The notes beneath the pieces were generated by a model that saw only the letters and a list, made by a program, of their open reading frames with translations, did not search any database and had not been told where the DNA came from. Shown here piece after piece: positions 2,357 through 58,556 of a stretch of DNA of 58,653 nt. Each line of letters starts with the position of its first letter. The first letter of the stretch is position 1. The position numbers and the translations under genes were made by a program. Source of the DNA: a bacterium. GTDB taxonomy: Bacteria > Eisenbacteria > RBG-16-71-46. The DNA lies in assembly GCA_043779265.1 (NCBI GenBank), contig JAYWEM010000159.1, positions 1-58,653 of the forward strand, read 5' to 3'.

Positions 2357-3937
2357 TCAGCGGCTGGTCGAGGAGTCCGGGTCCGCCGGGTCGAGCCGCA
2401 GGTAGCGCTGACCGCGCACCGATCCACTCGCTGAGTCCCATCGCCGGGTTTCGACCAGGGTGCGGCCCTCGGACGCGACGTACTCAGCGCGCCGGGCGAC
2501 TTCGCGTCGCACCTCGCTGTTGGCACTGCGCACCAGTACCCAGACCTCGGTGTAGTGGGCGGAGACCTTGCGAGCCTCGGCCTCGAGTTCGTCGAGTTCG
2601 GCCGGAGTGAAAGCTGCGGCGAAGGGCTGATCCGGATGCCCGACCTCGTGGATCTCGACCGGGTGCGGATCGTGGCGCACGTAGTACGCGAACGGATCGG
2701 CATCGTAGGCGACGAGTGCGAGACTCTGCTGCGGCAGTGCGAGCGACTCCACATGCGCCACGGCTTCGCGCCAGGGCTCCTTCGTGTAGTCCGCTCGGTA
2801 GCGCGCGAGCCCGAGCAGGGAGGTTGCGAGGACGAGTCCACCCAGCGCCAGCCGCAGGGGCTTCACGCCGCGCAGTTCCGCCAGCGAGAGCGCCAGCAGG
2901 ACGGCGATGTAGGGCGTGGCGAACACGAAGTAGCGGGGAAGGAAGAGCGGCTTCTGGAACGAGACCGCGAACACCAGCACGATCGGCACGACCCATGCGG
3001 CCCACGCCACGCGCGACAGGTGCCCGCGCCCACCCTGCCGCAGCATCAGAGGCAGCGTGAAGAGGAGCAGGAGCATCGCGGGAAGGGCGACGAGCCCCCA
3101 GGCGATCGGCCTCGGCATCCACTGATCGAGGCCCGGGAGCGGCGATCCGGGGAGCGGCGTGACGATGGAGAGAGGCGTCACCAGCACGGCGCGCAGCACC
3201 TTGAACACGCCGAGCGCATCCGGTTCATCGATGTACCAATGGCTGCTGGCCAGTTGCGCCGAGACCTCGCGCGAGGCCCAGGCCCACGGCAGGTAGAGGA
3301 GCACCGCCGCGACGAGCGCCAGTACCCAGGGCCAGAGGCGGCGGCGATGGCGCGCCGAGGAGATCGCGATCAGCCCGTGGGCCGGCACCGCCAGGAGTGC
3401 GAGGCTCTGCGTCCACAGTCCGAGCGCCATCGCCGCCGCATACGCGGGCCAGGCGCGGTTGCGGTCCGAGGCGATGCCGCGGGCGAACAGGTAGGTGGCC
3501 CACACGCCGAACAGCGCCACCGTCATGTAGGTACGGGCTTCCTGCGCGTACATGATCTGGAACGGGGAGATGGCCACGAGCAGCGCGGCGAACGCGCTGG
3601 AGCCGCGCGGGAGTCCGAGGCGCGCGAGTCGGTAGGTGAGCCACACGAGGCCGAGTGAGGCGAGCATCGGCACGAGCCGGAGCATGGTCTCGCCGTCCCC
3701 TCGTGAGATGGCGGCCTTGGTGAGGAGGTAGTGCAGTGGCGGGCTCGCATCGCGATGGATGCAGCGCTGGATCAGCTCGGCGAACGGGAGAGAGGCCGCC
3801 GTCCAGGTGGACGCCTCGTCCGTCCACAGACTGCGCCGACCGAGGTCGATGCCGCGGGTGATCGTGGCCACCAGGAGCACCAGCGGGAATGCCCACTTGG
3901 GTCCATCGCTCCGGCTGGCGGGGATCCAGGCGCCCAT
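2357..3937 (-). CDS. Membrane glycosyltransferase, GT-C fold (PMT/ArnT-like)
   Basis: Multi-TM protein with SLWTDE first-loop acidic motif, PPLHY, SPFQIMYAQEARTY and PRYF. Confidence 0.8.
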   Translation of the reverse strand: MGAWIPASRSDGPKWAFPLVLLVATITRGIDLGRRSLWTDEASTWTAASLPFAELIQRCIHRDASPPLHYLLTKAAISRGDGETMLRLVPMLASLGLVWLTYRLARLGLPRGSSAFAALLVAISPFQIMYAQEARTYMTVALFGVWATYLFARGIASDRNRAWPAYAAAMALGLWTQSLALLAVPAHGLIAISSARHRRRLWPWVLALVAAVLLYLPWAWASREVSAQLASSHWYIDEPDALGVFKVLRAVLVTPLSIVTPLPGSPLPGLDQWMPRPIAWGLVALPAMLLLLFTLPLMLRQGGRGHLSRVAWAAWVVPIVLVFAVSFQKPLFLPRYFVFATPYIAVLLALSLAELRGVKPLRLALGGLVLATSLLGLARYRADYTKEPWREAVAHVESLALPQQSLALVAYDADPFAYYVRHDPHPVEIHEVGHPDQPFAAAFTPAELDELEAEARKVSAHYTEVWVLVRSANSEVRREVARRAEYVASEGRTLVETRRWDSASGSVRGQRYLRLDPADPDSSTSR

Positions 3938-42609: not shown

Positions 42610-44445
42610 CTAGTTGCGCTGATCCTCGATCTTCGCGTCCGCACGCAGGCGCGTGAAGAAGCCCTGGAAGAAGTTCTGCTGGCGGCGCTGAAGCAGGTCG
42701 GTGGTGATCTGCCCCTTCACCGTGCCATCGAGCAGAGAGTCCGAAGCCACCTCGACCGCATCGAGACGGGCGAAGAACCAGCCGCTCGGCGTGCGGATCG
42801 GGCCGAGCAACTGGCCCGGCTTGGCCGCGAACAGGGCGCCCTGCACCTCGGGTGAGGCGGCGAGGCGCTGATCGGGCTGCTGGCGCGTCATGGTGACCGG
42901 GGAGACCGCGAGTGCCTCGGCTTCGGCCACGGCCTCGAGGGACATCCCGGACTTGAGGGCCTCGGTGATCCGGTCCGCACGCGACTTGCTCAACTCGAGG
43001 CGAGCCTCGACGTCGGCGATCTGCTTGATCTGCTCAGCCACGTCCTTGCGGGCGGGGGACTGGCCGGCGGCGTACTGATGCGTGATCTGCAGGACGTGGA
43101 ACTCGTCGCTGCCGATGAACACCGCGCTCACGTCGTCCTCGTCGTGCGCGGTGGCCCACTCGGACGCGTCCGGCGCCTGGAACAGACTCTGCGGCGGATT
43201 CTGGTCGTTGAAGAAGCCCGTCTTCGTTGTGGTCAGGGCCTTCTCCGTGGCGGCCTTGGCGAGGCCACCCTCGCCGAGACTGGCGGCGCGGTCGCGAATC
43301 GTCTTGGCCGCCTTGTACTGCTCGCGCAGCGACTCATCGGCGATACGGATCTTGACCGTGAGCTGCGCGATCTTGACCGCGCGCGGGAAGGGAGGATTCA
43401 ACGCCAGTGAGTCCGTGGCGGGATCGAGGATCCGGACGACGAACACCTGGCCGCCTTCGCGGTAGGGCGGGATCACGTCGCCGGGTCGGCGCGCATCCAC
43501 CATCTGACCGAGTACGCCCAACTCGCTCGGGCTGAACCACCGATCGATCACGCCGCCGCGATCCGCGTTCGGTCCCTCGGAGTGGTCGCGCGCGAGCTGG
43601 TCGAACGGCTCGCCGCTCTTCCAGCGCTCGTGATACGAGGCCGCCATCTCCATCGCAACGCGGACGTCGTCCTCGGAGTAGGTGCGCGGGATGCTCAGCA
43701 CTTCGGCCTGTGTGCGAGCGCCCGAGACGAGACGGTCCTTGTATTTCTCATAGATGCGCTGGAGCGTCGCGTCGTCGCCCTTGCTGCGGCCGGTGTCAGC
43801 CGGCGGGACGTGCAGCACGCTGGCCGAGAAGCGATCGTAGCGATCGTGGAACGACCGCTTCAGCTCGGGCTCCGAGAGCTTGATCGAGGACAGCAGGCGC
43901 TCCTGCAGCTTGTTGATGGGCAGGATCTCTCTGCGCATGCGCGCTTCGTAGGGCGCCCAGTTCATCGCGGGATCCGCAAGCAACTGCTGGTAGCGCTGGA
44001 AGTCGAACTGCCCGTCCTTGCTGAACTCCGGGGCGGCCTGCACTTCGGGCGGCGGGATGCGGCGCACTCCGTCCAGCACCTCGTTGTCGGTGACGCGGAT
44101 GCCCGCGAGCTTGGACTGGGTCACGAACAGGCGCTGTGTGACGAGGTTGCGCCACGCTTGCTGCTCGACGGCCTTGAGATCGCGGTCGATCGGATCGGTG
44201 TTGAAGCGCTGGCGGTACTGCAGCCGCGCCTCGCCGACGGCGCGCTGGTACTCCGCCATCTTGATCGTCTCGCCGTTGACGATGCCGGCTGTTCCCTCCG
44301 CACCGGTCTGGTTCCCCGAGAGCGGGTCGCCGCCGACGGCTCCGATGAAATTGAAGCCGATGACGAACGTGAATGTCGTGACGATGATGAGCACCCACCA
44401 GATGACGGTCTTGCGACGACCACCGCCACGAAGATTTTCGAGCAT
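42610..44445 (-). CDS. PpiD/SurA-like membrane-anchored periplasmic chaperone (parvulin PPIase)
   Basis: MLENLR plus TM, VNGETI, GQFD..RY, FDQLARDHSE...RGG, GPIRT..GW and AKIED. Confidence 0.85.
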   Translation of the reverse strand: MLENLRGGGRRKTVIWWVLIIVTTFTFVIGFNFIGAVGGDPLSGNQTGAEGTAGIVNGETIKMAEYQRAVGEARLQYRQRFNTDPIDRDLKAVEQQAWRNLVTQRLFVTQSKLAGIRVTDNEVLDGVRRIPPPEVQAAPEFSKDGQFDFQRYQQLLADPAMNWAPYEARMRREILPINKLQERLLSSIKLSEPELKRSFHDRYDRFSASVLHVPPADTGRSKGDDATLQRIYEKYKDRLVSGARTQAEVLSIPRTYSEDDVRVAMEMAASYHERWKSGEPFDQLARDHSEGPNADRGGVIDRWFSPSELGVLGQMVDARRPGDVIPPYREGGQVFVVRILDPATDSLALNPPFPRAVKIAQLTVKIRIADESLREQYKAAKTIRDRAASLGEGGLAKAATEKALTTTKTGFFNDQNPPQSLFQAPDASEWATAHDEDDVSAVFIGSDEFHVLQITHQYAAGQSPARKDVAEQIKQIADVEARLELSKSRADRITEALKSGMSLEAVAEAEALAVSPVTMTRQQPDQRLAASPEVQGALFAAKPGQLLGPIRTPSGWFFARLDAVEVASDSLLDGTVKGQITTDLLQRRQQNFFQGFFTRLRADAKIEDQRN

Positions 44446-44686: not shown

Positions 44687-45787
44687 GTGCGCACAGACGT
44701 CGTCCAACGCCCCTCAGAACCCGAGACGCCCGAACGGCCCGCCCCGGGCCCGGCGCTCGTCCTCGATGCGCTCGAGGAGGGGGTCATCGCCTTCGATCGC
44801 GAGCGTCGCGTCGCTTACGCCAATCGGCGGATAGAGGAGTTGATGAGCGTCGAGCCGGGCGCACTGCACGGGCTGCCGGGGAATCGCGTGTTCCCGGGCG
44901 CCGAGGCGCGCTGGCTGCGCGGCACGATCCGTGAAACGCGCGAGTTCCGCATCGAGACCGAAGGGCGAGACCTGACCTTGCGCGCCGAGTCGTTGCCGAT
45001 CCGCGACGAGGAAGGTGAAGTCGTGGGCTCGGTCGTACTGGCGGACGCCATCTCCGAGACCGAGGATGGCGAGTTCCAGAAGAAGATCGACCGCCTCGTC
45101 TCGCTCGGCGAGCTCTCGGCCTACGTCGCCCACGAGATCCGCAATCCGCTCACCGGCATCCGCACGACCGTCCAGTTCGTCGCCTCGCGCTTCAAGCCGC
45201 GCGATCCGCGCCGCGAGGACCTCGACGATGTGCTGCAGGAGCTGGACCGCATCGAGCAGATCATCACCGGACTCCTTCTGTTCGCGCGGCCGCCCCAGGC
45301 CAAGCCGCAGCTGTGCGGGCTCCACCCGGTGCTCGAACGCACGCTCGACCTGCTGGGGCCCCAGTGCGAGGACGCCCAGGTCACCGTCACGCGCGAGTTC
45401 GCCGAGGAGCTGCCGCTGGTCTACGCCGACCCCGACCTCATGCAGCAGGTGTTCCTCAACCTCTGCCTCAACGCCATCCAGGCGATGCCCGAGGGCGGCG
45501 CGCTCACGATCACGACCGGCGTGCGCCGCTATCGGACGCGCCGCTCGCTCGTCGACGTCTCGATCCGCGACAGCGGGCTCGGCATCCCGCGCGACCTGAT
45601 GGAGAAGATCTTCGACCCGTTCTTCACGACACGTTCGATGGGCACGGGTCTCGGGCTGCCGATCTCCTCGCAGATCCTCCGCGATTCGGGTGGAGTCATC
45701 ACCGCCAAGAACAACTCGGGGGGCGGGGCCACGCTGCGCGTGTCGCTGCCGATGCCGGCCGAATCCTCGAGCCGGTCCGAGGAGTGA
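44687..45787 (+). CDS. Cytoplasmic PAS-domain sensor histidine kinase (NtrB-like)
   Basis: PAS start LDALEEGVIAFD...YAN, H-box AHEIRNPL, QVFLNL..NA, DSGLGI, FDPFFTT and GTGLGL. No TM segment. Confidence 0.92.
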   Translation: MRTDVVQRPSEPETPERPAPGPALVLDALEEGVIAFDRERRVAYANRRIEELMSVEPGALHGLPGNRVFPGAEARWLRGTIRETREFRIETEGRDLTLRAESLPIRDEEGEVVGSVVLADAISETEDGEFQKKIDRLVSLGELSAYVAHEIRNPLTGIRTTVQFVASRFKPRDPRREDLDDVLQELDRIEQIITGLLLFARPPQAKPQLCGLHPVLERTLDLLGPQCEDAQVTVTREFAEELPLVYADPDLMQQVFLNLCLNAIQAMPEGGALTITTGVRRYRTRRSLVDVSIRDSGLGIPRDLMEKIFDPFFTTRSMGTGLGLPISSQILRDSGGVITAKNNSGGGATLRVSLPMPAESSSRSEE

Positions 45788-47184
45788 GCGTGAAGACCAC
45801 GGTCCTCGTCGTCGACGACGAGCTGCTCATCCGCAAGTCGCTCGGGAAAGTGCTGCGCGCACGCGGCTACACGGTCGATCTCGCCTCCAATGGCCGAGAA
45901 GGACTCGAGAAGGTCCGCGAACTCAGGCCCCAGGTCATGATCCTCGACATGCGCCTGCCGGACACCGATGGCCTCTCGGTCCTTCAGCAGGCTCGAGCCC
46001 TCGATCCGCTCCTGCAGGTCATCATCATCACGGCCTATGGCGACGTTCAGACCGCGGTCGACGCCATGAAGCATGGAGCCTGCGACTTCGTCCGCAAGCC
46101 CTACGAGCTCGAGGACATCGCGCTCGCCGTCGAGTCGGCCCAGCGGCATTTCAAGCAGGCGAATGAGCTCGACCTCTACCGGCGGCGTGCCTGGCAGCAC
46201 GACACGGGGGAGGAGATCATCGGGAGGTCCGAGCCCATGCAGGAGGTCCGGCGCCTCATCGACAAGGTCGTGAGGAGCAAAGCGACCTCGGTGCTGATCA
46301 CAGGTGAGTCGGGAACCGGCAAGGAACTGGTCGCTCGCGCCATCCATTACCGCAGCGATCGGGCCCAGGCGCCGCTGATGGAGGTGAACTGCTCCTCGTT
46401 CCAGGAGAGCCTGCTCGAGAACGAGCTGTTCGGTCACGAGAAGGGCGCGTTCACGGACGCGACCGACACCAAGAAGGGGCTGGTGGAGCTGTGCGACGGT
46501 GGCACGCTGTTCCTCGACGAGGTCGCGGACATGCCCCTGCCGACGCAGGCCAAGCTGTTGCGGTTCATCGATCACCGCAATTTCAAGCGAGTTGGCGGCG
46601 CGCATGACATCAGCGTCGACATCCGCATCGTCGCGGCCACGAACAAGCACGTCGAGGAGGAGGTCCGCTCGGGGCGTTTCCGCGGCGACCTGTTCTTCCG
46701 CCTGAAGGTCGTGGGCATCGAGCTGCCGGCACTTCGCGAACGCGGCGAGGACGTGTTGTCGATCGCCCGGCACTTCGTCGAGGAGTTCGCGCACAAGTTC
46801 CAGAAGGACTTCGCCGACATCTCGCCCGAGGCCGAGCGATTGATGCTCGACTACAGTTGGCCGGGCAACGTGCGTGAGCTGAGGAATTTGATCGAGCGCG
46901 TCGTGCTGCTCGAGGAGGGCGATGTGATCGAGCCCGACCTCCTGCCACCCGAACTGCTCGGCCGCCGAGGCCAGCCCGCACTCCTGGGGGTGTCACCCAT
47001 GCGCGACGCGCTCACGCTGCCGACGCTCGCGCAGATCGAGGCGGACCACATCAGCGAAGTGCTGCGACGCACCGCGGGGAATAAATCGCGCGCAGCGCGC
47101 ATCCTCGGCATCTCGAGGCAGGGACTCATCGAGAAGGTGCGACGCATGCGCATCGAAGAGGCGGAAGAACGTCCAGTCTCTTGA
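45784..47184 (+). CDS. Sigma54-dependent response regulator (REC, AAA+, Fis-type HTH)
   Basis: [46 protein letters not shown] and [18 protein letters not shown]-coupled (alternative GTG at 45790). Confidence 0.95.
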
Positions 47185-47276
47185 CAGTGTCCATGAAACA
47201 GACACTGAGTCGCATCATGTTCGCGTGCAATGACTTGCGATGAGGCGAGCGCGTAAGAGTCCAGTTAATGGACACT
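47171..47276. promoter_or_regulatory. Three GTCCA-N7-GACA dyad sites (candidate enhancer/UAS)
   Basis: GTCCAGTCTCTTGACA (47171-47186), GTCCATGAAACAGACA (47189-47204) and GTCCAGTTAATGGACA (47259-47274), each followed by GT or CT. Confidence 0.65.
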
Positions 47277-47397
47277 TAGCTCGGGTCGAACAAGTCGATC
47301 ACGGACAGTTGAGAGCCCGGTGCGAACCCATCGCATCGGGCTCTTCTCGTTGTGCGACAAGAGGTTGAGTGGTTCGTAGTCGCGCCGCTCACTCGAG

Positions 47398-47413
47398 TGG
47401 CACGGTCCGTGCA
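47398..47413 (+). promoter_or_regulatory. Sigma54 (-24/-12) promoter
   Basis: TGGCACGGTCCGTGCA versus consensus TGGCACG-N4-TTGCW: exact GG-N10-GC spacing and one mismatch. Confidence 0.8.
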
Positions 47414-47503
47414 CGTATAGGTCTGCGAGGCGCGAAGCGCGCGCCGATGAATTTGGATCTTTGCTGAGGCACTACGTCCAGCTTGGAGGAGGTGATCTCT
47501 ACC

Positions 47504-47572
47504 ATGGCTGCCAAGAAGAAGGCTGCGAAGAAGAAGGTCACGAAGAAGAAGGCCGCGAAGAAGAAGAAGTAA
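47504..47572 (+). CDS. 22-aa lysine-rich micropeptide MAAKKKAAKKKVTKKKAAKKKK (histone H1-tail-like)
   Basis: ATG...TAA preceded by GGAGGAGGTGATC, which carries an 11-nt match to the canonical anti-SD. Own sigma54 promoter upstream and hairpin downstream. Too short for the ORF track. Confidence 0.85.
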   Translation: MAAKKKAAKKKVTKKKAAKKKK

Positions 47573-47597
47573 CCGGTTCTCTGGACCTGGCACGTCC

Positions 47598-47641
47598 TGA
47601 AGGGCGGGTCGGCTCACGCCGGCTCGCCCTTCATCCATTTT
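47598..47641 (+). terminator. Terminator-like hairpin after the micropeptide
   Basis: TGAAGGGCGGGTCGGC-TCAC-GCCGGCTCGCCCTTCA (16 bp, two G-U pairs) followed by TCCATTTT. Confidence 0.65.
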
Positions 47642-47827
47642 CGATTCACGAAGTCTGCGTTCCGATCGAGGGGAATCGCGCTCATGGATCGAGCTGCGAC
47701 CTTCGGTCCTGCGCGGCGACCCGCGCACGGAGGCCCGGGTCGCCCGCGCTCTTGCCGATGCCGACGCGCGGCGCGAGGATGCCGAGGACCCGCATCCCCC
47801 AGTTCCCACCCGCATCCTCGAGCGCCC

Positions 47828-50605
47828 GTGTCCCCTGATCCCCAGCCTGTCATCCGCATCCGTGGCGCCCGCCAGCACAACCTTCGTGGCTTCGACGTCG
47901 ACATCCCGCGGGGCGGCCTCACGGTGATCACGGGTGTCTCGGGCAGTGGCAAGTCCTCGCTGGCGTTCGACACGCTCTACGCTGAGGGCCAGCGCCGCTA
48001 CGTCGAGTCGGTGTCGACCTACGCCAAGCAGTTCCTCGATCGCCTGCCGCGCCCCGACGTGGACTCGATCACCGGCCTGACCCCGGCCGTGAGCATCCAA
48101 CAGGTGGCGCCGACTCGCAGCGCGCGCTCGACCGTGGGCACGTCGACCGAAGTGCATGACCATCTGCGACTTCTGTTCGCCCGGCTGGGCGTGGTGCACT
48201 GCACCGGCTGCGGGGAGGCCATTCGCGTCGATTCACCCGCGTCGATCGCCGCCGAAGCGATCGCGTGGGAGCCGGGGGCACGCGTGACCGTGCTGGCCCC
48301 GCTGGCGCTCTCGCCCCGCTTCACCTGGGAGCAGCAGGCGGAGCATCTGATGAGTGCGGGCTTTACGCGCATCTGGCTGCAGGGGGAGCCGGTGGCACTC
48401 GAGCCGCTCCCCAAGCTCAAGCGCGGCACCTCGAGCGTGGATCTCGTCGCGGATCGATTCCGCTGGGAGAGCGACGAGGGCACGCGGCTCGCGGAGGCCT
48501 GCGAGCAGGCCTTCCGACGGGGCGATGGCCGACTGCTGCTCGTCGTGGGGGATGGGGCCGAGCCGTCGGCGCGCAGTGAGCGCTGGGCGTGCAACGCCTG
48601 CGGCGTGCCCGCCATGAGACCCGAACCGGCCCTGTTCTCATTCAACAGTCCGCTCGGCGTGTGCCCGGAGTGCCGAGGGTTCGGTGACGTGCTGACGTTC
48701 ACCTTGGACCTCATCGTCCCCGATCGGTCCAAGTCGCTCGAAGCCGGCGCGCTCGATCCGTGGGCGCGCACGTGGCGCAAGACCATGTGGCCGAAACTCC
48801 AGGCCTTCGCCGACGAGCATGGGATCGACGTGCACGCACCGTGGTCACGGCTGAGCGAGGAGCATCGTGGCTGGCTGCTCTCGGGACACGAGAAGTTCCG
48901 CGGCGTGATGGGGTTCCTCGAGCGGCTTCAGAAGAAGAGCTACAAGGCGGGCAATCGCTTCATCATCAAGCGCTACCAGAGTCCCAGGCGCTGCAGTGGC
49001 TGTGGCGGCGCACGCCTGCGGCCCGAGGCGCTCTCGGTGAGACTCGGCAGCCGCACGATCAGCGAGGTCACGGCGATGCCCGTGCGATATGCGCTCGCGT
49101 TCTTCGAGGGGCTCACGCTCGACGATCGCCAGCGCGCGATCGCCGCCACGCCGCTCGGCGAAGTGTGTTCGCGCCTGCGATTCCTGCAGCGGGTCGACCT
49201 CGGCTATCTGACCCTGGATCGCCCGATGCGGACGCTGTCCGGAGGCGAGGCGCAACGCATCGAACTCGCGAACGCACTGGGCGCCGATCTGGCCGACACG
49301 CTCTACGTGCTCGATGAGCCGACGGTGGGGTTGCACCCGAGGGACACCGACACGCTGCTCGGCATCCTGCGTGAGTTGGCGTCGCGCGGGAACACGCTCG
49401 TCGTGGTGGAGCACGAGCCGTTGGTGATCCGAGCGGCGACGCACCTGATCGACCTCGGTCCGGGTGCGGGTCGCATGGGAGGCGAGTTGCTGTACGCCGG
49501 GCCCGCGGCCGCGCTGGCCCAGGTGAAGGGCTCGGTGACCGGCGACTATCTGACGGGCCGACGCGAGGTGAGCCGCGAGCGGCGCGAGGGCGAGCCCGAG
49601 GGATTCGTGACCGTGGAGGGGGCGACCCACCACAACCTGCAGAATGTGACGGCGCGCTTCCCACTCGGCCGCATGACGGCGGTGACCGGCGTCTCGGGCT
49701 CGGGCAAGTCGAGCCTCGTCGAGGATGTGCTCGTGCGAGTGGCGCTGCGCCACTTCGAGGGCCGCGAGGATGAGCCGGTCGGCGCCCACCGCGCCGTCCA
49801 CGGGCTCGAAGCGCTGAAGCGCGTGGTGCTGGTCGACCAGTCGCCGATCGGCCGCACTCCGAGGAGCTGCCCGGTCACCTACATGGGTGCCTACGCCGCG
49901 CTTCGCGAGGCGTTCGCCCGGCAGCCGGCCGCGATGGCGCGCGGGCTCAAGGACGGGGCGTTCTCGTTCAACACCGAGGGTGGCCGCTGTGAACACTGCC
50001 AGGGCGCGGGCTGGGTGAGCGTCGAGATGTACTTCCTCGCCGACCTCAGCGTTCCGTGCGAGGTGTGCATGGGCTCTCGCTTCCGCCCCGAGGTGCTCGA
50101 GGTGCGCTACCGCGGCAAGGACATTCGCGACGTGCTCGCGATGTCGGTGGACGAGGCGTTCGAGCACTTCGCCCAGGAGCCCCGATTCACGCGCGCGCTC
50201 CACGTGCTGCGCCGCGTCGGCTTGGGCTACCTGCACCTCGGGCAGCCCGCGAATCAGTTGTCGGGCGGTGAGGCGCAGCGACTGAAGGTGGCGCGCGAGT
50301 TGGGTGAGCGCAGCGGCGGCCCCGCGCTCTACGTGTTGGACGAGCCCACCGTCGGCTTGCACTGGGCCGATGTGCAGCGGCTTCTCGAAGTGCTCGATGA
50401 TCTGGTGCGGCGCGGGGATACCGTCGTGCTGGTGGAGCACAATCTCGATGTCATCCGCAATTGCGACTGGTTGGTGGATCTGGGCCCCGAGGGTGGCGAA
50501 GGGGGAGGCCGACTGTTGGCCGAGGGTCCGCCCGAGACGATCGCCGCCTGCGAGCCCTCACAAACCGGTCGTTACCTGAGGTCGGCAGCCGGCGTGAAGC
50601 GATGA
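47828..50605 (+). CDS. uvrA: Excinuclease ABC subunit A (possibly a second paralog)
   Basis: GARQHNL, two GVSGSGKSS Walker A motifs, EGQRRYVES, FSFNS, CxxC zinc fingers, LSGGEAQR twice and LDEPT twice. GTG start. Confidence 0.95.
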   Translation: MSPDPQPVIRIRGARQHNLRGFDVDIPRGGLTVITGVSGSGKSSLAFDTLYAEGQRRYVESVSTYAKQFLDRLPRPDVDSITGLTPAVSIQQVAPTRSARSTVGTSTEVHDHLRLLFARLGVVHCTGCGEAIRVDSPASIAAEAIAWEPGARVTVLAPLALSPRFTWEQQAEHLMSAGFTRIWLQGEPVALEPLPKLKRGTSSVDLVADRFRWESDEGTRLAEACEQAFRRGDGRLLLVVGDGAEPSARSERWACNACGVPAMRPEPALFSFNSPLGVCPECRGFGDVLTFTLDLIVPDRSKSLEAGALDPWARTWRKTMWPKLQAFADEHGIDVHAPWSRLSEEHRGWLLSGHEKFRGVMGFLERLQKKSYKAGNRFIIKRYQSPRRCSGCGGARLRPEALSVRLGSRTISEVTAMPVRYALAFFEGLTLDDRQRAIAATPLGEVCSRLRFLQRVDLGYLTLDRPMRTLSGGEAQRIELANALGADLADTLYVLDEPTVGLHPRDTDTLLGILRELASRGNTLVVVEHEPLVIRAATHLIDLGPGAGRMGGELLYAGPAAALAQVKGSVTGDYLTGRREVSRERREGEPEGFVTVEGATHHNLQNVTARFPLGRMTAVTGVSGSGKSSLVEDVLVRVALRHFEGREDEPVGAHRAVHGLEALKRVVLVDQSPIGRTPRSCPVTYMGAYAALREAFARQPAAMARGLKDGAFSFNTEGGRCEHCQGAGWVSVEMYFLADLSVPCEVCMGSRFRPEVLEVRYRGKDIRDVLAMSVDEAFEHFAQEPRFTRALHVLRRVGLGYLHLGQPANQLSGGEAQRLKVARELGERSGGPALYVLDEPTVGLHWADVQRLLEVLDDLVRRGDTVVLVEHNLDVIRNCDWLVDLGPEGGEGGGRLLAEGPPETIAACEPSQTGRYLRSAAGVKR

Positions 50606-52434: not shown

Positions 52435-53187
52435 CTACTTCTGGAACAACTGCTTCAGCCACACGATCGTGGTCTGACGCCCGAGTTCGCCGAAGGCCTC
52501 GGTGAGCGGGATCTCCTTGGGGCACACCTCGACGCAGTTCTGGGCATTGCCGCAGTCCACGAGGCCGCCGCGACCCATGATGGCCTCGAGGCGCTCCTTC
52601 GCGTTCATCTGACCGGTCGGATGAGCGTTGAACAACCGCACCTGCGCCAGTGGCGCCGGCCCGATGAAGTCGCTCTGGTCGTTGTACTGCGGGCACACCT
52701 CCATGCAGCAGCCGCAGGTCATGCAGCGCGAGAACGCGTAGCTGATCTCCTGCTGCTCGTTCGACTGCTTGGGGCCGACGCCCAGATCGTACGTGCCATC
52801 GATCGGCACCCATGCCTTGACGCGCTTCAGGGCATCGAACATCGGCGTGCGATCCACCTGGAGGTCGCGGACGACCGGGAACTTGGTGAGCGGAGCCAGC
52901 GTGATGACGTCGTCGGCGATCGGATCGATCAGGGCGGTGCACGACTGCCGGGGCTTGCCGTTCACCAGCATCGTGCACGAGCCGCACACTTCCTCGAGGC
53001 AGGACGACTCCCAGTTCACCGGTGTCGTCTTCTGGCCCTGGCGCGTGACCGGCTTCTTGCGGATCTCCATCAGGCAGGAGATCACGTTCATGTTGGGCTG
53101 ATAGGGGAGCGAGAACTCCTCCCAGCGATTCGACGCCGTGGGCGTGTCCTGACGCAGGATGCGCAGCTCGATGGTCGATCGGGCCAA
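52435..53187 (-). CDS. sdhB: Succinate dehydrogenase iron-sulfur subunit (Bacillus type)
   Basis: CLEEVCGSC, CMTCGCCMEVCP and CGNAQNCVEVCPK. TTG start after GGAGG. Confidence 0.95.
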   Translation of the reverse strand: MARSTIELRILRQDTPTASNRWEEFSLPYQPNMNVISCLMEIRKKPVTRQGQKTTPVNWESSCLEEVCGSCTMLVNGKPRQSCTALIDPIADDVITLAPLTKFPVVRDLQVDRTPMFDALKRVKAWVPIDGTYDLGVGPKQSNEQQEISYAFSRCMTCGCCMEVCPQYNDQSDFIGPAPLAQVRLFNAHPTGQMNAKERLEAIMGRGGLVDCGNAQNCVEVCPKEIPLTEAFGELGRQTTIVWLKQLFQK

Positions 53188-53197
53188 GGCGGGCCTC

Positions 53198-55012
53198 CTA
53201 GTCGTACTTGCGTTCGACGGGCGCGTAGAGCGAGACGTCGACGGGGTCGTAGTGGAATCGCGGGCCGTCCGGGCTGTACTCGGCGACGGTGGTCTTGAGC
53301 CAGTTGGCGTCATCGCGCTTGGGGAAGGCGGGCTTGTAGTGCGCGCCGCGGCTCTCGTCACGCGCCAGCGCCCCCAACGTCACGACGCGCGCCAGATGGA
53401 GCATGTTCCACAGCTGGTTCAAGAAGGAGAGCGGCGCATTGGCCCACTTGCCGTGATCGAGCACGCTCGCACGAGACCAGCGATCCATCAGCTCGAGGAT
53501 CTTGGCGTCGGTGGCGCGCAGTTTGTCGTTCTCGCGGACGATGGTGACGTTCGACAGCATCGTGCGACCGAGTTCGTCGTGCAGCTGGTAGGGATTCTCC
53601 TCGCCGTCGCGCTGCGACAGCGCCTCGAAGTGCTGCGTCCACTTGCGCTCGGCCGCCTCGAACACGGAACTGGGCGCCTCGCCCGCGGCCTTCGCCTGAT
53701 TCTCGGCGTACACCACCGCGGCGGGGCCGGCGATCTGACCGGCGTAGATGCACGAGAGGAGCGAGTTGGCGCCGAGGCGATTGGCACCGTGGTACTGGTA
53801 GTCCACCTCGCCGATGGCGTAGAGCCCGGGCACGTTGCTCATCTGATTGCGCGGGCTGCCCAGGTCGAGGAACCCATCGGCCGTGCGCTCGTAGTCCACC
53901 CACAACCCGCCCATCGAGTAGTGGACGGCCGGGTAGATCTTCATCGGAGTGTCGCGCGGATCATCGCCCGTGAACTTCTCGTAGATCTCGAGGATGCCGC
54001 CGAGCTTCTTGTCGAGCGTCTCGCGATCGACGTGGGTCAGGTCGAGATAGACGCTCATCTCGCCACCGATGCCGAGACCCATGTTGACCACGATGTCGTG
54101 GATCTCGCGGCTCGCGACATCACGCGGCACGAGGTTCTGGTACTTGGGATAGCGCTCCTCGAGGAAGTAGAAGCGCTCACCTTCGGGGATCTGTGCCGGG
54201 CCGCGGGCATCGCCCTTCTGGCGCGGCACCCAGACGCGACCGCCCTCGCCTCGCGCCGACTCGCTCATCAGGCGCAGCTTGTCAGCGCCCGGGATGGCCG
54301 TCGGGTGGATCTGGATGAACTCGCCGTTGCCGTAGTGCACTCCGTCCATGTAAGCGGCGGCGGCCGCGGATCCCGAGTTGATGATCGAGTTGGTGCTCTT
54401 GCCGAACAGCAGCCCCGGTCCGCCGGTGGCGAGCATCACCGCATCGGCGGCGAACGCCTTGGGCTTCATGGAGCGTTGCTCGAGCGCGACCAGGCCGACA
54501 CAGCGGCCGTCATCCTCCTTCACCAATCCGACGAACTCGTGGCTCTCGAACTTGCGCACGAGTCCAGAGGCCTCGTGGCGACGCACCTGTTCGTCGAGCG
54601 CGTAGAGCAACTGCTGGCCCGTGGTGGCGCCCGAGAACGCGGTGCGGTGGTGGAGCGTTCCGCCGAAGCGGCGGAAGTCGAGCAGCCCCTCGGCGGTGCG
54701 GTTGAACGGCACCCCCATGCGATCGAGCAGGTAGATGATCCCGGGTGCCGCGTAGCACATGCCCTTGACCGGGGCCTGGTTCGCGAGGAAGTCGCCGCCG
54801 CGGCAGGTGTCGGTGAAGTGGATGTGGGGGCTGTCGTTCTCGCCCTTCACATTCACCGCGCCGTTGATGCCGCCCTGCGCGCACACCGAGTGCGACCGCT
54901 TGACCGGCACGATCGAGAACAGGTCCACGGCCACACCCGCCTCGGCCACCTTGATGGCGGCCATCAGTCCGGCGAGTCCGCCGCCGACGATCGCGATGCG
55001 AGGCGCCGCCAT
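53198..55012 (-). CDS. sdhA: Succinate dehydrogenase flavoprotein subunit
   Basis: GGGLAG, RSHSVCAQGGIN, QIHPT, SESARGEGG, HYSMGGL, HGANRLGANSL and ESRGAH. Confidence 0.96.
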   Translation of the reverse strand: MAAPRIAIVGGGLAGLMAAIKVAEAGVAVDLFSIVPVKRSHSVCAQGGINGAVNVKGENDSPHIHFTDTCRGGDFLANQAPVKGMCYAAPGIIYLLDRMGVPFNRTAEGLLDFRRFGGTLHHRTAFSGATTGQQLLYALDEQVRRHEASGLVRKFESHEFVGLVKEDDGRCVGLVALEQRSMKPKAFAADAVMLATGGPGLLFGKSTNSIINSGSAAAAAYMDGVHYGNGEFIQIHPTAIPGADKLRLMSESARGEGGRVWVPRQKGDARGPAQIPEGERFYFLEERYPKYQNLVPRDVASREIHDIVVNMGLGIGGEMSVYLDLTHVDRETLDKKLGGILEIYEKFTGDDPRDTPMKIYPAVHYSMGGLWVDYERTADGFLDLGSPRNQMSNVPGLYAIGEVDYQYHGANRLGANSLLSCIYAGQIAGPAAVVYAENQAKAAGEAPSSVFEAAERKWTQHFEALSQRDGEENPYQLHDELGRTMLSNVTIVRENDKLRATDAKILELMDRWSRASVLDHGKWANAPLSFLNQLWNMLHLARVVTLGALARDESRGAHYKPAFPKRDDANWLKTTVAEYSPDGPRFHYDPVDVSLYAPVERKYD

Positions 55013-55704
55013 CAGTGCTGCCCTCCCTGGTAGACCACTTCCTGGTGCGGCTTGCTGTGCGGCTTCTGCATGAAGTCCAGACGCAGTCCGCGGAAGCCGA
55101 GGATCGACAGGAGCCCGATGATCGACACCGCGACGCCCACCGCGAGGCCGATGCGCGCGGCGACATCCTGGGCGCGGCGCCCGGTCGCGAGGCCCCAGTG
55201 GATCGAGAATCCGAACAGGCCGTTGCCGAGGTGGAAGCCGGTGGCGATCACGCCGACCACATAGAAGGCGAACACGCCCGGGTGGGCGAAGTGCTCGCTC
55301 ATGAACTGGTAGGCGCTCGCCGAGTTCAGGTAGTCCTGCGAGAAGCGCGTGGACCACGTGTGGTAGGCGATGAAGGCGAACAGCAGGATGCCGGAGGCCC
55401 GCTGGGCCACGTAGTTCCAGTTCTTCGGGTAACCGAAGTGCGCCAGGTTCGGCTTGCTCGTGCCCGCGATCAGCATGCCGAGAACGGCATGGAACAGGAT
55501 CGGCACCCAGATGGTGCCGGCCTCGATCAGCAGGATGAACGGGATGCTGGCCAGCTCCTGCGCCGCCTTGTCGAAGTGGGCGGGGCCCTGCAGCGACTTG
55601 GCGTTGGTGAAGAAGTGGACCAGGACGAAGCCCCCGATCGGGAGCACACCGCTCAGCGAGTGGAGCCGCTTGAGCGTGAAGTAGGTGCGGTCATCGACCT
55701 TCAT
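55012..55704 (-). CDS. sdhC: Succinate dehydrogenase cytochrome b558 subunit (five TM, Bacillus type)
   Basis: RLHSLSG..PIG, heme-ligand His residues, QRASG and HLGNGL...WG. Start 55704 (alternative GTG at 55716). Confidence 0.92.
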   Translation of the reverse strand: MKVDDRTYFTLKRLHSLSGVLPIGGFVLVHFFTNAKSLQGPAHFDKAAQELASIPFILLIEAGTIWVPILFHAVLGMLIAGTSKPNLAHFGYPKNWNYVAQRASGILLFAFIAYHTWSTRFSQDYLNSASAYQFMSEHFAHPGVFAFYVVGVIATGFHLGNGLFGFSIHWGLATGRRAQDVAARIGLAVGVAVSIIGLLSILGFRGLRLDFMQKPHSKPHQEVVYQGGQH

Positions 55705-55892
55705 GGCGACGGACACTCCTCACGGGGGGTATGCACGAGACTGAACCGGCGGACCATAGCGCAGCGCGCAGAAGGCCTCCAACCGGATTCTGGCACAAGG
55801 GGTTAGCCGTTTTCGCGTGTTTTGGCAGTCCATGGTCCGCATGTTACCGTGCCCGGCTGTCCCTCCATCCCGGATGGTGAGGTCCTTCATCC

Positions 55893-58556
55893 ATGACCAT
55901 TTCGCTCACCGAATCGATCCAGCACCAGCTCCTGCCACGCGTCTCCAAGCCCAATCGATATCTGGGCCACGCGCTCGGCGGTGCTCCCAAGCCGCTTGCG
56001 GCGGCTTCGGTGCGCGTCCTGATGGCCTTCCCGGACGCCTACGAGATCGGACTGAGCAACCTCGGGATCAAGATCCTCCACCACATCCTGAATCAGCGCG
56101 CGGACGCCGCCTGCGAGTTGGCGTTCGCTCCGTGGCCGGATGCCGAGAAGGAGATGCGGCGGCTCGCGATCCCGCTGTTCTCCAATGACTCGCACAGCGC
56201 GGCCTCCGAGTTCGACGTGATCGGGTTCTCGCTGCAGTACGAGCTGCAGTACACCAACGTGCTCAACATGCTCGACCTGGCGGGACTGCCGCTGCGGACG
56301 GTCAAGCGCGACGCGAAGCATCCGCTCATCATCGCCGGGGGAGCGCAGGCGTTCAGCCCCGAGCCGATGGCGGAGTTCATCGACGCGTTCGTGATCGGCG
56401 ACGGCGAGGAGGTCATCCACGCGGTGGTCGACCTCGCGCGCGATGCCAGAGCGGGGCAGTGGCCGCGGAGTCGCCTGCTGCGCCGACTCGCGCATGTCCC
56501 CGGCGTCTATGTGCCGAGCGGCTACACGACCGAGGTCAGCCGCGAGGGCTGGCAGCTGCCGAAGGCGCGGCCGGGCTATCCCGATCGCGTGTTCTCGACG
56601 TACGTGAAGGCGCTCGAGAAGTCGTACTACCCGCCGATGCCCTTGCTGCCGGTGGGCGAGATCACACATGACCGGCTCTCGGTCGAGGTGATGCGCGGCT
56701 GCACGCGCGGTTGCCGCTTCTGCCAGGCCGGGATGATCAATCGACCGGTGCGCGAGAAGCCGGCGCAGCAGGTGGTCGAGGAGGTGCTGGCGGGACTTCA
56801 GGGGACGGGGCTCGAGGAGGTGTCGCTCATCTCGCTCTCGACCACCGACCACACGCAGATCGTGGAGCAGGTCAACGCCCTGACCGACATGCTGTGCCCG
56901 ACGCGCGTCCAGCTGTCGCTCCCCTCGACGCGGCCCGACAACGTGCCGATCGACGTGGCGCAGCGCATGGCATCGCAGCGCAAGGGCAACATCACGCTGG
57001 CGCCCGAAGCGGGCAGCCAGCGCATGCGCGACGTGATCAACAAGAACCATACCGAGGAGGAGCTGTTGGCCTCGGTGCGGACGGCCGCCAAGAGCGGCTA
57101 CACGGGCGCCAAGCTCTACTTCATGTGCGGCCTGCCGGGTGAGAACGACGATGACATCCGCGCCATCCTCGACCTGGCGACGCGGGCGTGGGGTGTGGCG
57201 CGCGAAGTCGGCGCGCGCAACTTCAAGATCACCGTCAGCGTGTCGCCGCACATTCCCAAGCCGCACACGCCGTTCGCGTGGGCGGAGCAGGTGTCGACCG
57301 CGGAACTCAACCGCAAGCTCGGCGTGCTGCGTGTGGCGGCACGGGGCAAGCCCGTGACGCTCAAGTACCGCGACGCCGAGACCAGCCTGCTCGAGGGTGT
57401 GTTCACCCGCGGTGACCGCCGCCTCGGCTCGGTCATCGAGGACGCCTACCTTCGCGGATGCCGGTTCGATGCCTGGACCGAGCACCTGCGCTACGCCACT
57501 TGGCTCGACGTCTTCGCCGCCCACGGCATCGACCCCGAGCGATATCTGATCGAGCGCGATACGCAGCTCGACCAGCCGTGGGATGTGGTCCAGTCCCCGG
57601 TGACGCGCAAGTTCCTGATCCGCGAGAAGCTGCGAGCGGATCAGGCGGGTATCACCGACGACTGCCGCCTCGAGGACAAGTGCTTCGCGTGCGGCGTCGT
57701 CGACTGCAACCAGCGACCGTGGGTCAAGACGCCCCACGCGCCGCTCGACATCGATCAGGCAATGGCCTCGCTGCCGGCGCCCGTGTTCGGACGCCGCGCT
57801 CGTCGCGGCCCGTCCGCGACCGCGGGCGGCGTGGCCACCAGCACGCGGTTCCGGATCCAGTTCGAGAAGGGGAGCGCGCTTCGCTTCGTCTCGCACTTGG
57901 ATCTGATGCGGACCTGGGAACGGGCATTGCGCCGTTCCGGGCTGCCGCTCGCATTCACCCAGGGGCATCACCCGCACTTGAAGATGTCGTTCGGGCCGCC
58001 GTTGCCACTGGGATTCCGTTCGCGGGCCGAAGTGTTCGATCTGGAATTCCTGCGGCCGCCGGGTATCGACCTCCGTGAGAGGCTCGACGCCGTGGCACCG
58101 GAGGGACTGCAGGTCCTCGACTTCCGGCCCATCCTCTACAAGACCCCGTCACTCATGAGCCAGCTCGAGGGCGCGACGTATCGCGTCCGGTTCCCCCGTA
58201 CGTTCCTCGCGGAACGCGGATTGGAACCCGAGCAGCTGCGGAGCGACCTGCACGAGCGTGTCCGGGGGCTGTTGGCCCGGGACGTCGTGCTGGTGCGCCG
58301 TGTGAGTGAGGATCAGGTACGCGAGTTCGATGCACGGCCCTCCATCGTGAGTGCCCGTGTTCACGACGCAGAAGGCGCCCCGGAGTTGGAGCTGGTGGTG
58401 CGGTTCACCGTACGCGCTCAGGCCCGCCCCGATGACCTTCTCGCCGTGTTGTTCCCCGAGTCGGATCCCCGCACCGTCGATATCGAACGGACGGAGCTGT
58501 GGATCATGCACGGGGAGGAGCGGGTCGACCCGCTCACGGCACTGACACCTCGGTAG
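55893..58556 (+). CDS. TIGR03960-type radical SAM protein fused to a TIGR03936/DUF2344-type radical SAM-linked domain
   Basis: KPNRY, FPDAYEIGLSNLG, SLQYEL.YTN, CTRGCRFC, APEAGSQRMR..INK and PKPHTPF; C-terminal FVSHLD...RALRR.GLP...G..PH. Confidence 0.9.
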   Translation: MTISLTESIQHQLLPRVSKPNRYLGHALGGAPKPLAAASVRVLMAFPDAYEIGLSNLGIKILHHILNQRADAACELAFAPWPDAEKEMRRLAIPLFSNDSHSAASEFDVIGFSLQYELQYTNVLNMLDLAGLPLRTVKRDAKHPLIIAGGAQAFSPEPMAEFIDAFVIGDGEEVIHAVVDLARDARAGQWPRSRLLRRLAHVPGVYVPSGYTTEVSREGWQLPKARPGYPDRVFSTYVKALEKSYYPPMPLLPVGEITHDRLSVEVMRGCTRGCRFCQAGMINRPVREKPAQQVVEEVLAGLQGTGLEEVSLISLSTTDHTQIVEQVNALTDMLCPTRVQLSLPSTRPDNVPIDVAQRMASQRKGNITLAPEAGSQRMRDVINKNHTEEELLASVRTAAKSGYTGAKLYFMCGLPGENDDDIRAILDLATRAWGVAREVGARNFKITVSVSPHIPKPHTPFAWAEQVSTAELNRKLGVLRVAARGKPVTLKYRDAETSLLEGVFTRGDRRLGSVIEDAYLRGCRFDAWTEHLRYATWLDVFAAHGIDPERYLIERDTQLDQPWDVVQSPVTRKFLIREKLRADQAGITDDCRLEDKCFACGVVDCNQRPWVKTPHAPLDIDQAMASLPAPVFGRRARRGPSATAGGVATSTRFRIQFEKGSALRFVSHLDLMRTWERALRRSGLPLAFTQGHHPHLKMSFGPPLPLGFRSRAEVFDLEFLRPPGIDLRERLDAVAPEGLQVLDFRPILYKTPSLMSQLEGATYRVRFPRTFLAERGLEPEQLRSDLHERVRGLLARDVVLVRRVSEDQVREFDARPSIVSARVHDAEGAPELELVVRFTVRAQARPDDLLAVLFPESDPRTVDIERTELWIMHGEERVDPLTALTPR

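Follow-up and report, generated by a model that had tools for sequence, protein, structure and literature searches.

A putative sigma54-controlled cassette of Eisenbacteria combining a short lysine-rich peptide gene with a 3' motif complementary to lexA mRNA

What is controlled by a soluble sensor kinase and its sigma54 activator when the promoter next to them appears to serve a peptide of only 22 amino acids? The question is raised by a module that starts at position 44687 of a 58,653-nucleotide (nt) contig from a bacterium of the Eisenbacteria (JAYWEM010000159.1, assembly GCA_043779265.1; this whole stretch is called the window below). In a preliminary description the module had been regarded as a two-component/sigma54 switch with a polylysine peptide as its apparent output. 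It was found here that the transcript probably has a second conserved part, which that description did not include: a 3' motif complementary to the messenger RNAs of SOS genes. The parts are of known kinds in an undescribed arrangement, which is phylum-wide. Taken as a whole, the transcript may be a sigma54-driven dual-function RNA, encoding a polycation and acting as an antisense RNA on SOS transcripts; our confidence in this complete reading is evenly balanced.

The regulatory pair and its promoter cassette

The histidine kinase (44687-45787, plus strand) displayed PAS_4, HisKA and HATPase_c domains in profile searches, and its kinase core is strongly conserved. The maximal 19-residue hydropathy was 1.06, indicating a cytoplasmic protein with neither a transmembrane helix nor a membrane anchor. 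The PAS domain has no conserved cofactor residue, so the signal is not readable from the sequence. The adjoining activator (45790-47184, plus strand) combines REC, Sigma54_activat (AAA+) and HTH_8 domains, as is expected for the NtrC family, with a conserved recognition helix. Its loop reads GAFTDA, and GAFTDA or GAYTDA was observed in most orthologues; GAFTDA has been listed as an activation-competent variant (PMC4641369). The domain composition given for both proteins in the preliminary description was therefore correct.

The activator was 73-87% identical to the nearest named loci, which belong to Candidatus Eisenbacteria, and no NCBIfam equivalog model for AtoSC, NtrBC or ZraSR reached its cut-off (AtoS 276 of 646, AtoC 453 of 714). 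A kinase orthologue was present in 190 of the 206 genomes of the phylum; representatives of same-length kinase clusters scored 420-509 bits, higher than all multi-domain kinases. None was detected when two other phyla, with 61 + 61 genomes, and five single genomes were searched, a set that did not cover sister phyla. The rpoN gene called for by the proposed switch was located on contig C155 of the window genome, the assembly of which is 92% complete. Sixteen strong matches to the sigma54-activator domain were found in the same genome; the assignment of this activator to the promoter behind it therefore rests on adjacency, co-conservation and co-movement.

Three putative enhancers with the pattern GTCCA-N7-GACA were identified by pattern and matrix at 47171-47186 (overlapping the activator stop codon), 47189-47204 and 47259-47274. 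The pattern occurred 21 times genome-wide, three of these inside 104 bp at the module. When the genome was scanned with a matrix built from 32 orthologous regions, the window included, the module gave the sole three-site cluster as well as the top single score. The three sites were retained with fixed spacing throughout the family of the window. No other target of the activator was found outside open reading frames (ORFs), the five further high-scoring places inspected being all intra-ORF, and no second intergenic cluster was seen among the genome places inspected. A possible IHF site lies at 47358-47367 (CAA-N4-TTG, which we take to be the IHF consensus); its position is partly conserved, and three HU/IHF genes were found in the window genome.

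The sigma54 -24/-12 promoter (GG-N10-GC, 47398-47413, plus strand) is conserved in the orthologous regions. Of 68 regions, 63 had a promoter matching at least 10 of 13 positions ahead of their first output gene, as compared with 2.1% of 2453 genome leaders. Transcription would be expected to start near 47424, which predicts a transcript of about 215 nt, all on the plus strand. Its 5' leader (47424-47486) occupies the position held by a receiver gene in other families and is hairpin-rich in most of the window family. Receiver-less leaders (L113-L136) contained as many as three long hairpins, whose sequences vary, and the window lineage retains the first only. The leader is followed by an extended Shine-Dalgarno sequence, AGGAGGTGATC (47487-47497), which matches the 3' end of 16S rRNA over 11 nt in two genomes of the same family, by the 22-codon peptide ORF (47504-47572), by the 15-nt 3' motif GGACCTGGCACGTCC (47583-47597) and by a terminator-like hairpin with an imperfect U tail (47598-47640; hairpin 47598-47633, 16 pairs), which is conserved in structure and variable in sequence. 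The dyad sites, promoter, strong ribosome-binding site, ORF and hairpin were thus all where they had been placed before. The possibility that the 3' motif is a second sigma54 promoter was discarded on inspection, as the -12 GC is missing.

In order to evaluate conservation, 77 orthologous regions were collected, one per genome, and six that ended too early were dropped. A lysine-rich ORF stood behind the activator in 68 of the 71 informative regions and in none of 53 control loci (NtrC-type loci from outside the Eisenbacteria with 1000 nt or more of downstream sequence, out of 58 examined), so that the promoter and ORF predicted downstream of orthologues were both recovered. In the three exceptional regions the place behind the activator is taken by an insertion sequence or by the gene of a Ser/Thr kinase, and the enhancers, promoter, ORF and 3' motif are intact farther on. 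This co-movement indicates that the unit is one promoter cassette. The module is phylum-wide with the anatomy described, a statement that we make with high confidence. Viral contigs gave no match, and among the 79 loci listed in a metagenome scan there were at least two true orthologues. No RNA run was listed for the module, which does not count as evidence. The open-licence literature, searched without supplements for Eisenbacteria with sigma54 or histones, for the peptide repeat and for small lysine-rich proteins under sigma54, did not describe the module.

In the other 17 families the first gene behind the promoter encodes a stand-alone receiver of 120-140 amino acids, directly in 46 of 48 regions and displaced in two. 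All its catalytic residues are intact, and its helix 1 is similar to that of the activator, which suggests a phosphate sink. The receiver gene was missing from all 23 regions of the window family. As both sister families of the order have kept it, it was most simply lost in the window family; the rest of the window genome gave no orthologue either (best score 84 bits, against about 180-190 for members). The peptide considered earlier as the apparent output is indeed encoded, but with the receiver gene preceding it in the other 17 families it does not appear to be the ancestral sole output, and it shares its transcript with the conserved 3' part.

The 3' motif and the SOS transcripts

The motif was found unchanged in 84 of 88 genomes of the window family and in 8 of 10 of family f3. 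With family variants allowed, it followed a Lys-Lys-stop in 127 of the 206 genomes of the phylum, while the reversed control gave 0 (one unpublished genome is counted in the f3 and phylum figures, and no claim depends on it alone). Its complement is the 5' end of the lexA mRNA (G000:C36:11089-11103, minus strand), right behind the lexA -10 element. Among 2538 crudely called leaders of the window genome, lexA ranked first, with -33.9 kcal/mol for the 15-mer and -26.2 kcal/mol for the next candidate. An 11-nt pairing with the motif was possible for 32 of 41 lexA 5' ends of the window family, and a LexA box followed by the complementary site was present in 63 of its 88 genomes. When the motif and lexA of the same genome were paired, 19 of 23 window-family genomes fell in the top 1% of the background, as did 2 of 6 in f3 and 1 of 2 in f2 (both in the top 5%); in f18 the top 1% contained 0 of 14 and the top 5% contained five.

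The substitutions were informative as well. After exclusion of seven poorly fitting leaders out of the 41, the remaining 34 showed 30 departures from perfect pairing: 18 A>G and nine C>T changes, all G-U compatible, and three that break a pair. The opposite transitions (G>A, T>C) did not occur among them. In f2 both partners have changed together, with GCGC for GCAC on each side, and in one f14 genome a different 12-bp helix pairs at the top of the background. In f18 the match is partial: 15 of 29 pairs reach the top 5%, the site lying in the initial codons of an apparently leaderless lexA. A covarying complement, as is characteristic of dual-function RNAs, was thus observed in the window family, f2 and one f14 genome, in part in f3 and f18, and not in the others tested.

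Two more LexA-box transcripts of the window genome, on contigs C99 (a small gene followed by dinB) and C139 (a second small gene), have a partly complementary site at their 5' end, overlapping the ribosome-binding site. Altogether, three of 10 LexA-box strand matches (seven loci) in this genome have such a site, against 1.6% of the background. In two window-family genomes from groups with a poor lexA fit, another LexA-box transcript has it; among 20 further candidate LexA-box regions of relatives, only about three have it at the 5' end. Based on these matches, it is likely that the motif pairs as RNA with SOS mRNAs.

The operator of LexA in this group is apparently TGCAC-N4-GTGCA, located between -35 and -10 at lexA, recA and the small-gene/dinB operon (G000:C36:11114-11127, C69:14617, C99:2808, C139:3231) and conserved in the window family, f2, f3, f14 and f18. 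The motif is not that operator, and recA lacks it. The lexA gene of f18 (L311-L339) seems to be leaderless and to encode about 25 extra N-terminal amino acids, basic and rich in Pro, ahead of the DNA-binding domain. Other roles of the motif were also rejected. Pairing with 23S or 16S rRNA did not covary and extended over no more than 7-8 nt in four operons (a 23S pattern gave no match, and the window genome has no assembled rRNA). A structured hairpin is weak, with four pairs, one wobble change and no two-sided changes, and the motif core persists without the 5' arm of the small hairpin in f2 and L201. No conserved site for feedback pairing was found on the kinase or activator mRNA, and an Rfam search gave nothing at the gathering score.

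Several observations weigh against the dual-function reading. The top 5% is missed by four of the six pairs in f3 and by nine of the 14 in f18, where not one of the 14 reaches 1%, and the motif is unchanged in these lineages. The seven lexA leaders set aside above fit the motif poorly, and 12 further genomes (f5-f7, f11, f12, f14-f17) gave one clear pairing and one borderline case. When intra-RNA folding was counted, the gain for lexA was -16.1 kcal/mol, equalled or exceeded by five of 120 other candidates, and the hairpin of the lexA leader itself is a further constraint on part of the site. The genomes are related, so that the counts are not independent. Hfq (PF17209) had no match in the window genome, the only one searched for it. 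On the peptide side, no lysine-rich protein reached the HC2 cut-off, and low-complexity matches are weak evidence.

In one alternative account the peptide is the only output, and the motif and the SOS-leader sites are either DNA sites of one protein or an RNA stability element that matches fortuitously. The site is indeed fixed right after the -10 element of several LexA promoters, as an operator would be, and the motif is invariant even where the lexA pairing has been lost. However, 27 of the 30 leader changes are G-U compatible. In f2, f14 and part of f18 the position and sequence of the site shift together with the motif, some forms being bulged and inside the coding region, while the LexA box stays constant. 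A DNA operator would moreover stand in a 3' untranslated region before a terminator, without an evident promoter to control. We consider a peptide-only output unlikely.

Alternatively, the pairing could act in the reverse direction, the SOS-induced 5' ends of lexA and of the dinB operon destroying the peptide mRNA, so that damage would stop packing and free the chromosome for repair. Complements at the extreme 5' end of several SOS transcripts would form a damage-induced antisense pool. The C99/C139 site overlaps the ribosome-binding site, however, and the f18 site covers the first codons of a leaderless lexA, both classic target positions; furthermore, the peptide transcript is the invariant side and the SOS leaders the variable one, the usual pattern for a regulator and its targets. 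This makes the reverse direction improbable.

For the dual-function RNA itself, targets that cover ribosome-binding sites and initial codons point to repression. In contrast, the lexA site of the window family lies 37 nt before the start codon and its pairing would open a 5' hairpin, so that stabilisation could result instead. Repression is the sign to which we would give a slight preference.

The lysine-rich peptide

The 22-residue peptide contains 13 Lys in Lys/Ala pentamer repeats, and is hence not the polylysine it had been called. Among orthologues the length ranged from 13 to 227 amino acids, mostly below 50, with a composition of 49% K, 21% A, 9% T and 8% R and nearly no acidic residues. 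Basic residues recur with a period of five (autocorrelation 0.60 in long forms, 0.49 in short ones). Start codons interchange, as do stop codons; length differences are multiples of a codon, and the changes at Ala codons are silent, a comparative signature of an ORF translated under selection. In the Lys blocks the sole replacement of Lys is Arg. All 283 Lys codons of the peptide in the window family are AAG, compared with 88 of 93 in five window genes.

No match to the HC2 and H1-like models of Pfam and NCBIfam (PF07382, NF038052, NF038053) was obtained with the 22-mer. Long orthologues matched weakly and always below the cut-off, with maxima of 35.9 of 40 bits (Pfam) and 30.3 of 80 (NCBIfam). 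They share with Hc2-type proteins the consecutive Lys-rich pentamers with length polymorphism. The 22-mer appears to be a miniaturised member of the H1-like protein family and not Hc2 by profile, so the H1-like character suggested earlier holds for the resemblance of the long orthologues but not for profile scores. There is no histone fold in the peptide, and PF00808 was not found in any of the five genomes searched. The ESM Atlas returned low-complexity look-alikes only, with low recognition. Ten of 10 members of the peptide family looked up were missing from a 15-billion collection in which the receiver of one such locus was present; gene catalogues seem to miss this protein.

Long forms (L152, L153, L169, L157, L160, L170, L173, L174, L147) end in a short hydrophobic, Pro-containing tail, e.g. 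LPSIF-x-M, which short forms lack and which is possibly a binding or degradation tag. Other long Lys/Ala/Pro-rich H1-like stretches were noticed in proteins at G000:C71 near 5250 and C24 near 738 (both minus strand). Directly behind an HU/IHF gene, a 31-residue Lys/Arg-rich ORF (G000:C195:14993) resembles small basic ribosomal proteins, presumably of the bS22 type.

From its composition, it is quite likely that the peptide binds nucleic acid, DNA being the candidate partner; nucleoid condensation and dormancy would be possible consequences. The polycation could instead serve RNA or ribosomes, polyphosphate or a polyamine-like role. Of Hc1 and Hc2, the latter binds RNA better, and it represses translation (PMC2848022). 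The H1-like AlgP organises polyphosphate granules (PMC9239181), and an S-adenosylmethionine decarboxylase gene (speD) follows in 11 of 65 downstream regions, a count that includes the query of the search. Nevertheless, Ppk1 was found in two of five genomes and not in that of the window, and the decarboxylase is missing from the window assembly and, where present, lies behind the terminator. A partner other than chromosomal DNA is compatible with the RNA arm, but we regard it as quite improbable. A lysine-sensing leader peptide with an attenuator for a downstream uvrA-like or speD gene, suggested by the tandem of short Lys-rich ORF, small hairpin and terminator with a uvrA-like gene next in 38 of 65 regions, is very improbable given orthologues of up to 227 amino acids with C-terminal tails of their own, an alternative pairing of only 4 bp on inspection against 12-16 bp for the terminator, and a next gene that differs between lineages.

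Proposed circuit, known systems and neighbouring genes

The following circuit is proposed from sequence comparison. An intracellular signal would switch on the cytoplasmic kinase, which would phosphorylate the adjoining activator. The activator would then bind the three enhancers and open the sigma54 promoter, and the very strong ribosome-binding site would yield abundant Lys/Ala pentamer polycation. In the manner of H1/Hc2 tails, this could associate non-specifically with nucleic acid, and its most likely effect would be to compact or shield DNA. Meanwhile, the segment before the terminator would pair in trans with the first 11-15 nt of the lexA mRNA and, in two more LexA-controlled transcripts (one of them with a small gene and dinB), with the ribosome-binding region; reduced translation or stability of these mRNAs would be the most likely result. 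With less LexA the SOS genes would rise, the dinB operon being kept low at the same time, so that one signal would couple DNA packing with a retuned SOS response. In other families the co-transcribed receiver, a component that the window family would have lost, probably terminates the pulse by drawing phosphate away from the kinase.

Pairs of a cytoplasmic PAS kinase and a sigma54 activator are known (PMC7064773, PMC12095286). Vibrio FlrBC, Pseudomonas FleSR, NtrBC, AtoSC and Chlamydia CtcBC likewise join a PAS-HisKA-HATPase kinase without transmembrane helices to a REC-AAA+ activator of sigma54 promoters; unlike in these systems, a tiny transcript is the only target found here, one that ancestrally included a receiver gene. 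The peptide resembles chlamydial Hc2 (HctB), Bordetella BpH1 and the Burkholderia H1-like proteins in its Lys/Ala/Thr/Val/Arg pentamers, in-frame length variation and few acidic residues. Hc2 is built of pentamers with two basic residues each (PMC2848022), whereas the Eisenbacteria pentamer has about three. The analogy to chlamydial Hc1/Hc2 drawn in the preliminary description is supported by this likeness but is otherwise loose: hctB is bound and transcribed by sigma28 and lacks a sigma54 promoter, yet it rises with CtcC activity (PMC7482065, PMC12282069), while the peptide gene has a direct, conserved sigma54 promoter. Pseudomonas AlgP (PMC9239181) and Coxiella Hq1 and ScvA (PMC12196073) are also basic-repeat or tiny basic proteins, tied to the nucleoid, to granules or to a condensed dormant form; the Eisenbacteria peptide differs in having neither a globular N-terminal domain nor a Pro-rich KPAA repeat.

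The nearest functional analogue, with no homology implied, appears to be sbrB of S. aureus, where an alternative stress sigma factor drives a small basic Lys-containing peptide (SbpB) and the RNA is antisense to lexA (PMC8745188). There, the antisense is cis-encoded, by read-through from a strain-specific terminator mispair, in contrast to the covarying trans match of 11-15 nt proposed here, which is conserved in the window family and extends to other SOS leaders.

Dual-function and 3'-untranslated-region-derived RNAs such as SgrS/SgrT, RNAIII, SR1 and CpxQ offer a further comparison. They similarly combine, in one short transcript, an ORF with a conserved seed for pairing that directly precedes the terminator; the present case differs in its sigma54/two-component control, H1-like product and SOS targets, and in that Hfq was not found in the window genome.

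Downstream of the terminator, the uvrA-like and speD neighbours fit a DNA-care setting without proving it. The window copy (47684-50605) is a second uvrA-like gene, 47% identical to that on C180 over the part compared, and no LexA box was seen in front of it. In a genome of the same genus (L112, about 3150-3684), the downstream uvrA is only 52% identical to that of the window, as against 94% for the kinase and 87% for the activator, an apparent switch to the canonical uvrA type by recombination or misassembly. The decarboxylase gene lies between terminator and uvrA in L131 (916-1362, minus strand), L117, L122, L126, L129, L132, L136, L141, L142, L144 and L116. In some loci a conserved non-coding stretch precedes it, with 3' remnants where it has been lost; this stretch had no Rfam match. 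Upstream of the kinase, a divergent SurA/PpiD-like chaperone gene (window 42610-44445, minus strand) was found in 41 of 50 loci, several others being truncated. The remaining window genes noted are ordinary, namely a succinate dehydrogenase-like operon, recognised by inspection (52435-55716, minus strand), and a TIGR03960/TIGR03936 radical SAM fusion (55893-58556, plus strand).

If the dual-function reading is true, sigma54 would act directly on an H1-like protein gene, a link that is indirect in Chlamydia, and lexA would have a trans-encoded, covarying RNA regulator, the open-licence literature searched having given only the cis-antisense case. Nucleoid packing and SOS control would be tied in one transcript. 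We know of no developmental form in Eisenbacteria. The circuit is fully specified (enhancers, promoter, peptide, seed, targets and LexA box) and could be rebuilt in E. coli, and the natural length series of 13-227 amino acids makes the minimum length of a linker-histone-like protein testable. More tentatively, the phylum may possess a dedicated, Hfq-independent sigma54 pathway with a single RNA as its output, in which a minimal linker-histone-like polycation is combined with trans action on lexA and the error-prone polymerase operon; this would amount to a damage-independent reset of packing and repair, possibly an undescribed entry into a dormant state.

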